This document shows positions 35,561 to 38,813 of a stretch of DNA of 64,000 nt, piece after piece (within the stretch, counting starts at the first letter, position 1; each line of letters starts with the position of its first letter). A model generated the notes under the pieces. The model was not told the DNA's origin, ran no database searches, and was given only the letters and a program-made list of their open reading frames with translations. A program made the position numbers and the translations under genes. The stretch lies in assembly GCA_045646345.1 (NCBI GenBank), contig JAZRKN010000014.1, forward strand, positions 97,882 to 161,881, written 5' to 3'. This stretch comes from Candidatus Scatovivens sp. Lineage in GTDB: Bacteria; Bacillota; Clostridia; TANB77; CAG-508.

Positions 35561-35944
35561 ATGGCAAAATTAATGAAAGTAATGGCTGTTGCTTTATTAG
35601 TTGTTATGGTAGTTGCAGCTCTTGCAACATCAGCTAATGCAACAATGTCGTTCAATGCTGTTACAACAGATTCTGTTGTACAAGGAGCTTCAGATTCATC
35701 TGGTGCTGCTTCAAGTATTAACAGAATTATTGGATCTGTTTTAACAATCGTTCAAGTAGTTGGTTGTGGTGTTGCTGTTATTATGTTAATCGTATTAGCT
35801 ATTAAATACATTTCAGCTGCTCCTGGAGACAAAGCAGATATCAAAAAACATGCTGTTGTTTACGTAGTAGGTGCTGTAGTATTATTCGCAGCTAGCGGTA
35901 TCTTACAAATTGTTAAAAACTTTGCTGGAAACATCAAAGCGTAA
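35561..35944 (+). CDS. TrbC/VirB2-family pilin 1 (probable major pilin)
   Basis: Signal peptide (ANA), variable region, then two TM helices joined by IKY.SAAPGDKADIKKHA. Has its own promoter and terminator. Confidence 0.85.
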   Translation: MAKLMKVMAVALLVVMVVAALATSANATMSFNAVTTDSVVQGASDSSGAASSINRIIGSVLTIVQVVGCGVAVIMLIVLAIKYISAAPGDKADIKKHAVVYVVGAVVLFAASGILQIVKNFAGNIKA

Positions 35945-35959
35945 TAGTTTTAAGATCTT

Positions 35960-35992
35960 AAAAAGGAATGTCTTTGAGGCATTCTTTTTTTT
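35960..35992 (+). terminator. Intrinsic terminator after pilin 1
   Basis: AAAAGGAATGTCT-TTG-AGGCATTCTTTTTTTT. Confidence 0.85.
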
Positions 35993-36078
35993 GCTTTTAT
36001 TTTTGTGAAAAATATTAAACAATATTTACAAATAAAATTTTATAAGTTAATATTAATATAATAGAATGTGGTATATTG

Positions 36079-36107
36079 TTGAAAAAAATGTAAAAAAATG
36101 TTATAAT
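36079..36107 (+). promoter_or_regulatory. Sigma-A promoter for pilins 2-6
   Basis: TTGAAA-17 bp-TATAAT with an extended -10 (TGn). Confidence 0.75.
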
Positions 36108-36139
36108 AAAAATAGTATACTTAGGCGGAGGAAAATAAT

Positions 36140-36514
36140 ATGAAAAAAATGAAAAGAATAGTAGCAATAGCTGTATTACTAATTGTTTTATTTGCTATTA
36201 TAAATTGTAATAATGTTTCTGCTACATTTAACATGATGGAGACAATTAATAATCAAGTAAATGCTACAGCAGACACAAATGTTACAGATTCTGTAAAATC
36301 TATTGCAGGTTCTGTAATTACAATTACAAAAGTTATATGTGCTGGAGTTGCAGTAGCAATGCTTACAATATTAGGTATTAAATATATGTCAGCTGCTCCT
36401 GGTGAAAAAGCTGATATCAAAAAACATGCTGTTCCGTACGTTGTTGGTGCAGTTATAATGTTTGGGTGTACAGGAATTTTATCTATAATTGAAAAATTTG
36501 CATCAGGTTTCTAA
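36140..36514 (+). CDS. TrbC/VirB2-family pilin 2
   Basis: GIKYMSAAPGEKADIKKHAVPYVVGA motif and signal peptide. Confidence 0.85.
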   Translation: MKKMKRIVAIAVLLIVLFAIINCNNVSATFNMMETINNQVNATADTNVTDSVKSIAGSVITITKVICAGVAVAMLTILGIKYMSAAPGEKADIKKHAVPYVVGAVIMFGCTGILSIIEKFASGF

Positions 36515-36536
36515 TACATAAACGGAGGGTATTTTA

Positions 36537-36917
36537 ATGAAGAAAGTATTAAAATTTTCATTAGTTTTATTTGTAGTGCTTTGCATAACATTTATGTGCA
36601 TTCAAAACTTTGTAGATGCATCTACATATAGTTCTGAAATGCAAAATCTAATACAAGCAGACTATTCAGACTCTACAAATTCAGTTGGACAAGTTAATAA
36701 TCTTGTTGCAACAATTTTATCATCTATAAGATTAGTGGGTGTTGCTGTTGCGATAGCTGCTTTACTAGTGTTAGCGATGAAATATATGACAGCAGCTCCT
36801 GGTGATAAGGCTGACATAAAAAAAGGTCTTACTACATATGTGATTGGTGCTTGTATATTTTTTGGAGTTGTAGGAATTTTAGAAGTAATAAACAATTTTG
36901 CAAATGCAATTAAATAA
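36537..36917 (+). CDS. TrbC/VirB2-family pilin 3
   Basis: AMKYMTAAPGDKADIKK motif and signal peptide. Confidence 0.85.
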   Translation: MKKVLKFSLVLFVVLCITFMCIQNFVDASTYSSEMQNLIQADYSDSTNSVGQVNNLVATILSSIRLVGVAVAIAALLVLAMKYMTAAPGDKADIKKGLTTYVIGACIFFGVVGILEVINNFANAIK

Positions 36918-36942
36918 TATATTTAGGATGGAGGACTTAGTA

Positions 36943-37335
36943 ATGAATATAGTAAAGAAATTGTCCGTAGTATTTATTGTATTAATGCTTTTGACTAGTT
37001 TTTGTTGTATAAGTGTTAATGCTGAAGGAGAAGCTTCAAATGATAATTTTAAATTAGATGCATTTGATTCGGCTTCTGATGAAGGAAGTAAAAAAGCTAA
37101 TAATATGGTAAATAAAGCAGCAGGAAATATAATAGGTATTGCAAGAATTGTTTGCGTAACAATTGCAATTGTTATGTTGTTGGTAATTGCAATGAAATAT
37201 ATGGTATCTGCTCCTGGTGATAGGGCTGATATTAAGAAGCATGCAGTTAATTATGTAATAGGTGCATTTGTTCTTTTTGGAATATCAGGAATATTAACTA
37301 TTTTAAACAATTTTGCTCAACAAATTGGTGTTTAG
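36943..37335 (+). CDS. TrbC/VirB2-family pilin 4
   Basis: AMKYMVSAPGDRADIKKHA motif. Likely start ATG 36943 after GGAGG. Confidence 0.85.
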   Translation: MNIVKKLSVVFIVLMLLTSFCCISVNAEGEASNDNFKLDAFDSASDEGSKKANNMVNKAAGNIIGIARIVCVTIAIVMLLVIAMKYMVSAPGDRADIKKHAVNYVIGAFVLFGISGILTILNNFAQQIGV

Positions 37336-37350
37336 TAAGGAGAGGTGCTT

Positions 37351-37719
37351 ATGAAAAAGATATTGGTTAAATTAATATGCATTTTGCTTATTGTAGCTTG
37401 CATATTTGCGATTACAAATGGTGTTGATGCAACATCGGAAATAATTAAGAATAAATTTAAAGGAAATTCTGGTAGTGAAGGATCAGAATCAGTTAAGCAA
37501 ATTTTATCTGCAATATTAAGTGTTGTTAGAACTGTTGGTGCTGCAATTGCTGTTGTTATGTTGATGTCAATTGGTGCGAAATACATTGTTGCATCTGCTG
37601 GTGATAGAGCAGACATCAAAAAATATGCAATCAATTACGTAATAGGTGCAATTATTTTATTAGGTGCTACAGGAGTTTTATCCGTAGTACAAAATATAAT
37701 AAACAAATCTTTAGAATAG
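37351..37719 (+). CDS. TrbC/VirB2-family pilin 5
   Basis: GAKYIVASAGDRADIKKYA motif. Likely start ATG 37351. Confidence 0.85.
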   Translation: MKKILVKLICILLIVACIFAITNGVDATSEIIKNKFKGNSGSEGSESVKQILSAILSVVRTVGAAIAVVMLMSIGAKYIVASAGDRADIKKYAINYVIGAIILLGATGVLSVVQNIINKSLE

Positions 37720-37736
37720 ATAGAAAGGAAAAAACT

Positions 37737-38141
37737 ATGAAAAAGATTATTTCGATATTAATTTTAATTATAATCGCAAGTTTTATTTGTGGAACTTTAA
37801 ATGTATATGCTGAAGATGCTGGTATAGAAGGGATTATATCAGGTATGTCGAATGCATCTAAAATATCAGAAACAGATGCTGATACAGGTATTGGAAAAAC
37901 GATAAATGATGTAATAGGTTTATTACAATTGGCTGGTACTGGTATTGCTGTAATTGTTACAACAATGTTAGGTATAAAATATCTAATAGCAAGTCCATCT
38001 GAAAAAGCTGATACTAAAAAGCAAATAATGCCTATTTTAATAGGATGTATATTACTTTTTGGAGCAGTAAACCTAGTTGCATTAATTGCTGATTTCTCAG
38101 TTGTATTAGATACTGGTACTGGTGCTGCTGCTGGTTCTTAA
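37737..38141 (+). CDS. TrbC/VirB2-family pilin 6
   Basis: GIKYLIASPSEKADTKK motif and signal peptide (VYA). Confidence 0.85.
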   Translation: MKKIISILILIIIASFICGTLNVYAEDAGIEGIISGMSNASKISETDADTGIGKTINDVIGLLQLAGTGIAVIVTTMLGIKYLIASPSEKADTKKQIMPILIGCILLFGAVNLVALIADFSVVLDTGTGAAAGS

Positions 38142-38156
38142 TATAAAATAAGATAC

Positions 38157-38191
38157 AAGGTGTTAACCCAAGTGAAGGTTAACACCTTTTT
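38157..38191 (+). terminator. Intrinsic terminator after pilin 6
   Basis: AAGGTGTTAACC-loop-GGTTAACACCTTTTT. Confidence 0.85.
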
Positions 38192-38346
38192 GTTTTTTTA
38201 ATAATAAATATTATTTTATGAATTTATTTTATCAATAATATTTAAAGTTAAAAATAATACTTTAATAATCTTTAAAAAAGGCTTTTTTAAAAGAATTTTT
38301 GGATTATTACAATTATGTTAAAATTAGCAAATATTGAATAAAAATG

Positions 38347-38375
38347 TTGAAAAAAAAATCATATTTGAGTATAAT
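38347..38375 (+). promoter_or_regulatory. Sigma-A promoter for the pilin 7-prgI-virB4 machinery operon
   Basis: TTGAAA-17 bp-TATAAT. Confidence 0.7.
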
Positions 38376-38426
38376 TAATATAATAGAATAGTATAAATAG
38401 GCAATATTGGATGGAGGTATAAAAAC

Positions 38427-38813
38427 GTGAAAAATAAAGTGTTAAGAAAAATATTGATAGCAGTAATATTATTATATGTGCTTGTGTCAGCTTTTTCAAA
38501 TGTTAAAGCTATTACTCTTAAAGAAATGCAAGATAAAGCTAATAACTTTATTAATGCTGGAGCAACTAATCAAAACATTGACTATAATAATGTTACAAAA
38601 GAATTTAGTGATCTTGGCCAAATATTAACAATGATTGGTGCAGGTGTAATGGTTGGTGTAACAACTTATATGGGAATTAAATATTTAACAGCAGGACCAG
38701 AGGCTCAAGCAAAATTAAAAGTTCAATTAATAGGTGTTGTTGTTTCAGGTATGGTTATTTTCGGTTCATATTATATCTGGAGAACTGTTTTAAAAATAGC
38801 AGCAACATTTTAG
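38427..38813 (+). CDS. TrbC/VirB2-family pilin 7 (most divergent; first gene of the machinery operon)
   Basis: GIKYLTAGPEAQAKLK motif between two TM helices. GTG start with GGAGG RBS. Confidence 0.8.
   Translation: MKNKVLRKILIAVILLYVLVSAFSNVKAITLKEMQDKANNFINAGATNQNIDYNNVTKEFSDLGQILTMIGAGVMVGVTTYMGIKYLTAGPEAQAKLKVQLIGVVVSGMVIFGSYYIWRTVLKIAATF

Follow-up and report, generated by a model that had tools for sequence, protein, structure and literature searches.

In Patescibacteria, the T4SS (type IV secretion system) combines TrsD and VirB4 with PrgI, VirB6 and 2-11 VirB2 pilins (Quinonero-Coronel et al. 2025, PMC12102498). S. epibionticum has an array of six pilin genes (reviewed in PMC12857230), and a T4SS with a VirB2 array is essential for epibiotic growth of this species (PMC12102498; PMC12857230). 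Relaxases occur in just 103 of 3,035 candidate phyla radiation (CPR) genomes, and most Patescibacteria clusters are without one (PMC12102498). A 2025 review describes potential conjugative pili as unique, among monoderms, to Patescibacteria (PMC12857230), and a 2026 preprint reports possible T4SS pili at a parasite-host interface and host RNA uptake (10.64898/2026.06.21.733656). The subject here is a tandem array of seven pilin genes in Candidatus Scatovivens sp. (assembly GCA_045646345.1), found at positions 35,561 to 38,813 of a 64,000-nucleotide stretch of contig JAZRKN010000014.1 that is referred to as the window. Ca. Scatovivens and UBA7001 belong to the family CAG-508 of the order TANB77 (PMC8035907, supplement), an order with no cultured member (PMC11680825). 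No paper on a T4SS or pilin array in TANB77 or CAG-508 was found in a search whose coverage excluded most subscription journals and bioRxiv supplements.

The seven genes very likely encode T4SS pilins of a domesticated core system. They are intact + strand open reading frames (ORFs) specifying proteins of 122-134 amino acids, with a Shine-Dalgarno site before every one. The family PF18895 (VirB2-like T4SS pilin) matches all seven with E-values from 2.8e-9 to 2.3e-5, six of them exceeding the cut-off, and TrbC/T4SS_pilin is found on 27 of 30 Atlas neighbours. The pilins are encoded together with VirB4 and VirB6, and the genome (1.79 Mb, 96.7% complete) has just these seven copies. Alignment and an AlphaFold2 model of pilin 1 agree on a topology in which an N-terminal signal precedes a hydrophobic hairpin of two helices joined by a short basic loop. 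Helices in the model span residues 2-22, 49-85 and 88-124, and the predicted local distance difference test (pLDDT) score of the hairpin helices is about 90. Fold searches with the model returned generic helical hairpins, a sequence search of solved structures returned designed helical proteins, and modelling of a four-copy pilin complex gave no answer (score 0.00).

Type IV and Tad (Flp) pilins start with a class III prepilin leader and contain just one hydrophobic helix, at the N-terminus. That identity is ruled out for the array by the Sec-type signal and C-terminal hairpin of its products, none of which matches a Pfam family of such pilins. The array is also distinct from the published TANB77 Tad pilin cluster (Kim et al.), as the Tad-like locus taken to be that cluster, a second pilus system of this genome, sits on another contig. 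A TadA-like ATPase and a TadB/C-like gene of the Tad-like cluster were seen at C15:111784-115245. Neither 'T4SS' nor 'conjugat' occurs in the main text of Kim et al. (PMC11680825).

The hairpin has the form transmembrane segment-KY...A..K-transmembrane segment. The initial annotation of the window, made from the sequence alone, held that all seven pilins share it or a close variant, and the alignment bears this out: K, Y, A and K are invariant, and the core segments of all 21 paralogue pairs align above shuffled sequences, at 20-61% identity. Pilin 7 has the loosest variant (KYLTAGPEAQAKLK). The segment following the signal peptide was described as unalignable between paralogues and 25-35 residues long; the first point stands, with above-shuffle alignment in 1 of 21 pairs, and the second does not, since the segment comes to about 18-26 residues when the cleavage site is set by eye and the boundaries are those adopted here. 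In more distant arrays (loci L029, L060, L064, L067, L072, L074-L078, L156, L157, L161 and L162) the last pilin often has 200-240 amino acids and some members exceed 400, which suggests doubled hairpins or extra N-terminal domains.

Table 1. Features of the array and the downstream cluster, in window coordinates. Promoters and terminators are predictions, and locus counts for them refer to nine seven-pilin loci that include the window's own; aa, amino acids; HMM, hidden Markov model; ICE, integrative conjugative element.
Feature	Position	Strand	Evidence
Sigma-A-type promoter of pilin 1, TTGAAA-17-TATAAT	35500..35528	+	predicted; 7/9 loci
Pilin 1, VirB2-like, likely major shaft subunit, 127 aa	35561..35944	+	PF18895, 35.4 bits
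Intrinsic terminator after pilin 1	35960..35990	+	predicted; hairpin in 9/9 loci
Promoter of pilin 2-6 unit, TTGAAA-17-TATAAT	36079..36107	+	predicted; 9/9 loci
Pilin 2, likely minor subunit, 124 aa	36140..36514	+	PF18895, pilin tree, slot match
Pilin 3, likely minor subunit, 126 aa	36537..36917	+	PF18895, pilin tree, slot match
Pilin 4, likely minor subunit, 130 aa	36943..37335	+	ATG with Shine-Dalgarno site, PF18895, pilin tree
Pilin 5, likely minor subunit, 122 aa	37351..37719	+	PF18895, pilin tree, slot match
Pilin 6, likely minor subunit, 134 aa	37737..38141	+	PF18895, pilin tree, slot match
Intrinsic terminator after pilin 6	38157..38188	+	predicted; hairpin in 7/9 loci
Promoter of pilin 7 and machine operon, TTGAAA-17-TATAAT	38347..38375	+	predicted; 9/9 loci
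Pilin 7, most divergent, first gene of machine operon, 128 aa	38427..38813	+	PF18895; last-slot clade
Small membrane protein, PrgI/VirB3-like by size and position only	38825..39160	+	homologue in 80/80 loci
TrsD-like protein, resembling N-terminal part of VirB4	39161..40429	+	NF045975 positions 54-226, E 4e-5
VirB4 ATPase	40449..42440	+	profile matches
VirB6-like polytopic protein a, with pilin-like hairpin	42457..43677	+	weak NCBIfam ICE transmembrane matches; pilin HMM E 6e-5; plasmid homologues
Extended VirB6-like protein b, 1416 aa	46426..50676	+	plasmid homologues; pilin HMM
Extended VirB6-like protein c, 945 aa	50677..53514	+	plasmid homologues; pilin HMM
Extended VirB6-like protein d, 881 aa	53547..56192	+	plasmid homologues
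Two single-pass proteins (170 and 323 aa) travelling with the cluster; putative VirB8-like role	56214..57713	+	
G5-SH3-glucosaminidase peptidoglycan hydrolase, candidate VirB1 analogue	58151..59473	+	domain matches

Predicted promoters and terminators divide the array 1 + 5 + 1 (Table 1). The arrangement first proposed, in which pilin 1 forms its own unit, pilins 2-6 a second and pilin 7 heads the machine operon, is consistent with the recurrence of all five predicted elements in most or all of the nine seven-pilin loci. A bare count of promoter sites is weak evidence (53, against 40.3+/-5.8 in shuffled sequences), and the idea that the motif is dedicated to the array was rejected, the motif being the genome's ordinary sigma-A-type promoter (69 such sites). 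Codon use also sets pilin 1 apart. It had been described as rich in C-ending codons in the manner of highly expressed genes, and such codons indeed account for 12 of its 22 Phe, Tyr, Asn and Ile codons compared with 0.15 genome-wide (p=2e-5). This places pilin 1 at rank 19 of 1479 ORFs, amid ribosomal proteins and elongation factor Tu, and the C-ending fraction in pilins 2-7 is 0.03-0.22. The VirB4 gene is biased too (40/115, p=2e-7). Among 58 related arrays of at least three pilins, which are not independent of one another, 33 have their highest C-ending fraction in the first pilin. Taken together, codon bias and layout make a division into major and minor pilins probable. The proposed split into a major, several minor and one machine-linked pilin fits these observations and the separate clade of last pilins described below; the accompanying idea that specificity varies by rapid change is unsupported.

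The system extends well beyond this genome. VirB4 was found in 194 of 201 TANB77 genomes and in all 33 genera, 191 of the matches having E<1e-90; three of the 194 are weak and probably come from other elements. Outside the order, 4 of 288 other Clostridia had a VirB4 match, with identities of 29-39%, and the TrsD-like gene gave three weak matches among 349 genomes of the phylum. In a VirB4 tree of 28 sequences, five families each held together with support of 90-100 and the order formed one clade with support of 95. Each of the five families has stretches in which pilin arrays accompany VirB4. Ca. Scatovivens and UBA7001 are among the close VirB4 relatives; together with the Tad-like locus, these relatives are the basis for placing this genome in TANB77. 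No tyrosine recombinase or integrase was found on the 162-kb contig, and no serine recombinase in the genome. Judged from these comparisons, the T4SS is chromosomal, lineage-wide and vertically inherited across TANB77. As a separate observation, at least seven members of a Clostridia family with genomes of 0.8-1.0 Mb contain a single, isolated T4SS-pilin-like gene, and the VirB4 of this system had no match in that family.

The closest named VirB4s are encoded by large Clostridium plasmids (40-41% identity) and by Bacillus and Paenibacillus megaplasmids (29-33%), among 25 VirB4 plasmids listed. On three plasmids inspected the gene order is a single small gene, PrgI, TrsD, VirB4, VirB6 and a hydrolase. 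A protein with a Replic_Relax domain, considered further below, matches 14 plasmids, all among the 25 listed, and on both of the plasmids inspected an S1-domain gene lies directly upstream of the Replic_Relax gene, as in TANB77. Pilin 1 had no match in the plasmid collection. In a set of 1.84 billion cluster representatives, the full-length VirB4s of TANB77 make up essentially one cluster and the next relatives are at most 40% identical; Heliorestis is among the near relatives outside that cluster (10 looked up). A transfer module of a Bacillota megaplasmid is the likely source of the system, and capture of such a module by the ancestor of the order is the simplest reading.

VirB2 and TraA pilins lose a Sec signal and reside in the membrane as a hairpin. 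Each of the seven pilins would similarly shed its signal and sit as a hairpin in the membrane. Its extraction and polymerisation would fall to VirB4, working with the TrsD-like and PrgI-like proteins and on the VirB6-like platform, solved conjugative pili serving as the analogy (PMC9905601). Within the filament the basic KY...KK loop would face the lumen and the N-terminal segment the outside. Codon bias and layout suggest pilin 1 as the bulk shaft subunit. Pilins 2-6 would then be low-abundance subunits whose fixed, distinct surfaces serve at the tip, in adhesion or in recognising targets. Pilin 7, the output of which would scale with that of the machine, may act in priming or at the base. 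What passes through might be selected by two coupling proteins and the products of the S1/Replic_Relax gene pair, all of which are core to the order.

The reading favoured here, which is held with about even confidence, is that these VirB2-like pilins head a vertically inherited, likely plasmid-derived chromosomal T4SS and likely build one composite contact pilus, with which these purine-auxotrophic bacteria would attach to other cells and draw on them, a use parallel to that proposed for the parasitic Patescibacteria. Contact-dependent feeding or attachment is plausible as the main job of the system, although this falls somewhat short of an even call. A role in cell contact is favoured because bacteria that are uncultured, have small genomes (0.9-2.2 Mb in the order) and mostly lack PurE (present in 3 of 101 TANB77 genomes, with 14 of 14 controls positive) retain the system and apparently express it strongly, and because S. 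epibionticum needs the same architecture to grow as an epibiont. TANB77 may therefore need partner cells, which is offered as a hypothesis for the uncultured status of the order. A bolder version is doubtful: that members of TANB77, a common order in human and animal guts, are host-cell-dependent epibionts or predators which independently domesticated a Bacillota megaplasmid conjugation machine, expanded its pilin into a set of fixed specialised subunits and employ it as a conduit for host nucleic acids, so that the lifestyle of Patescibacteria would have arisen a second time, in Clostridia. If true, that lifestyle would explain the absence of TANB77 cultures.

Several observations weigh against the composite contact pilus or its proposed origin and use. 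In 25 of the 58 related arrays a pilin other than the first is the most biased, and a single pilin lies next to VirB4 in 9 of 69 loci, so not every locus has a composite array. On the plasmids, the gene that takes the pilin's place matches the pilin profile weakly or not at all, with E-values of 0.0016, 0.09 and 0.56, and the VirB4 tree was built quickly, has long branches to the outgroup and includes nothing from Patescibacteria. This genome keeps PyrF and a FabD-like gene, and gut contents can supply a purine auxotroph through salvage. Saccharibacteria have smaller genomes than TANB77, and a spore gene resembling gpr is present in TANB77. The retention of two coupling proteins and a relaxase-like protein points to export and fits DNA transfer at least as well as feeding.

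The last of these points leads to the main rival, in which a domesticated conjugation system moves chromosomal DNA between TANB77 cells and the pilins serve mating contact. Archaeal Ced/Ted, the gonococcal island and chromosomal transfer in mycoplasmas are comparable outcomes. Every part of the plasmid transfer module is kept as core: besides VirB4, VirD4 is present in 100 of 101 genomes, a second coupling-protein-like ATPase in 99 of 101 and the Replic_Relax-domain protein, nearly always single copy, in 97 of 101. The second coupling protein is closest to the plasmid's own (30% identity, E 1e-50), and both coupling proteins are encoded on contigs other than that of the array. The Replic_Relax gene comes after the S1-domain gene; of 12 stretches, 5 have the pair within the T4SS cluster or adjacent to it. 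Its product matches PF13814 in the N-terminal part only (29.4 bits, cut-off 25.3), and the model (pLDDT 90.8) has a winged helix and a restriction-nuclease-like domain, with weak Foldseek matches to FokI, NucC and MarR-like proteins (best E 1.3e-3).

MOBC relaxases possess an acidic catalytic motif, D...E-x-E. In 36 aligned sequences the corresponding Replic_Relax motif is FE[VAI][VI]RR, in which the first Asp and the second acidic residue are missing and only one Glu is conserved; because no more than one acidic residue of the motif is kept, the protein is not called a relaxase. A relaxase search of this genome that covered MOBP and MOBT, but not MOBQ, MOBV, MOBF and MOBH, detected neither of the two. 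ComEC is present in 4 of 5 genomes, so another route of DNA uptake exists, and DNA transfer among kin does not need pilin codon bias at ribosomal level or the multiplication of pilins and VirB6 genes. On balance this rival is judged unlikely. In this genome the second coupling-protein-like ATPase gene is convergent with the S1-domain gene, which is followed by the Replic_Relax gene (C15:214730-219527). The S1-Replic_Relax pair also occurs on megaplasmids typed as non-mobilizable by MOB-suite, and may be the signature of a transfer-processing module not recognised so far.

The two core coupling proteins could alternatively recruit protein, and the system would then secrete effectors against neighbouring microbes or gut cells, with the pilins acting as adhesins. 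The degenerate nuclease motif and the large lineage-specific proteins within the clusters would fit such a function, as would the amplification of VirB2 in Bartonella and Anaplasma (PMC12102498). No effector or immunity genes were identified, although they were not searched for systematically, and the stability of the pilins speaks against an arms race. Effector secretion or antagonism is considered improbable.

That stability emerges from comparison of the arrays. In a tree of 203 pilins, which has few columns and many open forks, grouping follows array position and not genome, and 33 last-slot pilins form one clade with support of 98. The best match of 60 of 63 pilins in nine seven-pilin relatives is the same slot in the window, and the N-terminal segment alone picks its own slot in 47 of 56 cases, about 8 being expected by chance. 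Slot 1 is the most conserved in a slot-by-slot comparison that covered slots up to 6, its pilin core being 67-99% identical in the nine relatives. More distant loci (L015, L016, L058) keep slots 1, 6 and 7 with the middle remodelled, and slot 1 was recently duplicated in L017. Beside VirB4 there are 1 to 8 pilins per locus, varying between genera, in 69 loci with enough flank; the profile was built from the window's pilins, so that distant arrays are undercounted. The ratio of nonsynonymous to synonymous substitution rates (dN/dS), pooled from two species pairs with dS of 0.6-1.1, is 0.11-0.17 for the core and 0.27-0.31 for the N-terminal segment; the segment evolves 2-3 times faster than the core, with both values below 1. 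The longest exact DNA match between paralogues is 21 bases.

Within the species there is little variation. In conspecific contigs from other samples, pilins 2-6 differ at 14 of 2,559 bases and pilins 2-7 at 33 of 4,065 (at least 99% identical), and pilin 1 shows 0-3 differences in five runs from three studies, one of them possibly the source sample. Low depth at 35502-35752 had raised the possibility of a strain-variable pilin 1, which was rejected when narrower mapping gave 0-3 differences across the region. One low-depth contig, probably from a related species, has 169 other letters in place of 35581-35746, with flanks about 92% identical.

The initial annotation called the N-terminal segment hypervariable and proposed that a set of minor or alternative pilins varies receptor or phage specificity. 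The segment does differ among paralogues, but it is conserved per slot across species and nearly invariant within the species, and copy number and sequence are both constant in conspecific contigs, an outcome that the annotation itself had named as contradicting its proposal. Slot orthology, purifying dN/dS and constancy within the species indicate that the paralogues are old, fixed and distinct and do not form a switching repertoire. A related scheme for antigenic or phage-receptor variation, in which one pilin is expressed and silent or switchable alternatives are reshuffled, could draw on the unalignable and faster-evolving N-terminal segments, the variation in copy number between genera and the recent duplication of slot 1. 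Every copy is, however, intact with its own ribosome site, the promoters are conserved, no silent partial copies are present, paralogues share no more than 21 identical bases and conspecific contigs differ at less than 1% of sites. On these sequence comparisons the scheme is very improbable and largely refuted. After the slot analysis, such arrays are better viewed as sets of fixed specialised subunits than as devices for antigenic variation.

The coupling protein gene virD4 revealed a separate feature of the order. In 19 of 30 loci, virD4 is split at its Walker A motif, where an in-frame CGG comes with a single additional base; the remaining 11 all read GTC-GG(A/T) at that site. When the four bases are read as one glycine, a VirD4 of 686 amino acids results; the same reading restores an S1 protein of 267 amino acids, which shares 43% identity with an unsplit orthologue across 257 residues. 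Of the 57 in-frame CGG codons near ORF ends in this genome, 10 open a long +1 frame compared with a background of 0.022, and CGG in the other two frames opens such a frame in 1 of 128 and 5 of 185 cases genome-wide. Across 92 TANB77 loci the count is 38 of 142 against 0.033, conserved glycines of VirB4 and VirB6 included. The sites include C11:129668 (L081:1020-3081), C15:219149 and others in loci L050, L051, L021, L022, L053, L055, L059, L061 and L062; one lies in a long-read genome and is common to three other assemblies. No tRNA-Arg(CCG) is among the 33 tRNAs found, an incomplete set, and tRNA-Gly(TCC) is present three times. CGG codons are also present in frame within ORFs, of which many have a higher G+C content. 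An enrichment of AGG at apparent frameshifts (23/179) was set aside as mostly Shine-Dalgarno overlap at gene junctions.

In-frame CGG thus appears, from these sequence patterns, to be read as a +1 frameshift to glycine across TANB77. CGG reassignments in Clostridia have been described, with no such frameshift in the accessible part of that source (10.64898/2026.04.02.715157), and no paper was found on CGG read as a +1 frameshift to glycine. The finding would matter independently because annotated genes are split across the order, among them virD4, the S1 gene, VirB4 and VirB6 genes and apparently housekeeping genes, and it may outweigh the array in interest. It also bears on the scarcely credible alternative that the locus is a resident ICE or a decaying plasmid remnant without host function: plasmid ancestry, the apparently frameshifted virD4 and, for an ICE, the two coupling proteins (on other contigs) would suit this, but the 'break' is a recurring CGG site that leaves a full VirD4 if read as glycine, no integrase lies nearby, the genes are under purifying selection, and the alternative is refuted because the system follows the families in about 95% of the order's genomes and is not patchy, unless the sampled genomes are unrepresentative.

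Downstream of the array, the small protein after pilin 7 has no match in Pfam or NCBIfam; PrgI is annotated at the equivalent position on related plasmids. The TrsD-like protein is 30% identical to its plasmid homologue. Four VirB6-like paralogues with a pilin-like hairpin occupy window positions 42457-56192, three of them bearing long soluble extensions; homology between a pilin hairpin and a VirB6-like protein has in principle been reported (PMC9905601). Upstream of the array, type I restriction-modification-like genes and a two-gene toxin-antitoxin-like pair, judged from translations, lie at 24587-32125, near a tRNA-Met gene at about 33057-33132. At the end of the cluster (60421-61009), tRNA-Arg(CCT) immediately precedes a tRNA adenosine deaminase-like gene, a pair of interest because the arginine-codon behaviour of the order is unusual.

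Among known systems, the amplified VirB2/TrwL genes of Bartonella and Anaplasma are likewise tandem, divergent VirB2 paralogues (cited in PMC12102498). Those bacteria are diderm animal pathogens whose arrays are tied to host-cell range or immune evasion (PMC12102498), whereas the TANB77 slots are stable across species. The TANB77 Tad-like cluster, with pilin 938, resembles the array in being conserved and in having several pilin-like genes and separate promoters (Kim et al. 2024, PMC11680825), but its components (CpaB/TadZ/TadA/TadBC) make up another kind of machine, encoded elsewhere in this genome. Archaeal Ced and Ted are, like the TANB77 system, domesticated chromosomal derivatives of T4SSs that include a VirB2-like pilin besides VirB4 and VirB6 (Beltran et al. 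2023, PMC9905601), and in both cases the pilin is homologous to the N-terminal part of a VirB6-like protein. Ced imports DNA and has a single pilin type (PMC9905601), whereas TANB77 retains coupling proteins and up to eight pilins.

The plasmid modules of Clostridium, Bacillus and Paenibacillus share with the TANB77 cluster its gene order, a related coupling protein and the S1-Replic_Relax pair, and they include the closest VirB4 at 41% identity (examples are C. beijerinckii NZ_CP107023 and Brevibacillus CP139434). These modules carry one pilin-like gene and one VirB6 gene and are extrachromosomal and patchy, whereas the TANB77 system is chromosomal, core and expanded, and in this genome is spread over three loci. 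The likeness to the T4SS of Patescibacteria is one of architecture. Both systems are chromosomal and lineage-wide in monoderms with reduced genomes, both include TrsD and VirB4, PrgI/VirB3, VirB6 and tandem divergent VirB2-like pilins, and in both the coupling protein gene lies away from virB4 and the same genome has a second pilus type. TANB77 differs in belonging to the Clostridia, in having two coupling proteins and the Replic_Relax/S1 pair as core, in its multiplied and extended VirB6-like genes, and in that the nearest named relatives of its VirB4 are on Bacillota plasmids, in a comparison made without CPR VirB4s. TANB77, which has been tied to immunotherapy response (PMC11680825), is thus a second lineage in which to ask what pilin arrays and domesticated T4SSs do, and an architecture that the 2025 review calls specific to Patescibacteria among monoderms (PMC12857230) is a core trait of an order of gut Clostridia, with a traceable plasmid source.

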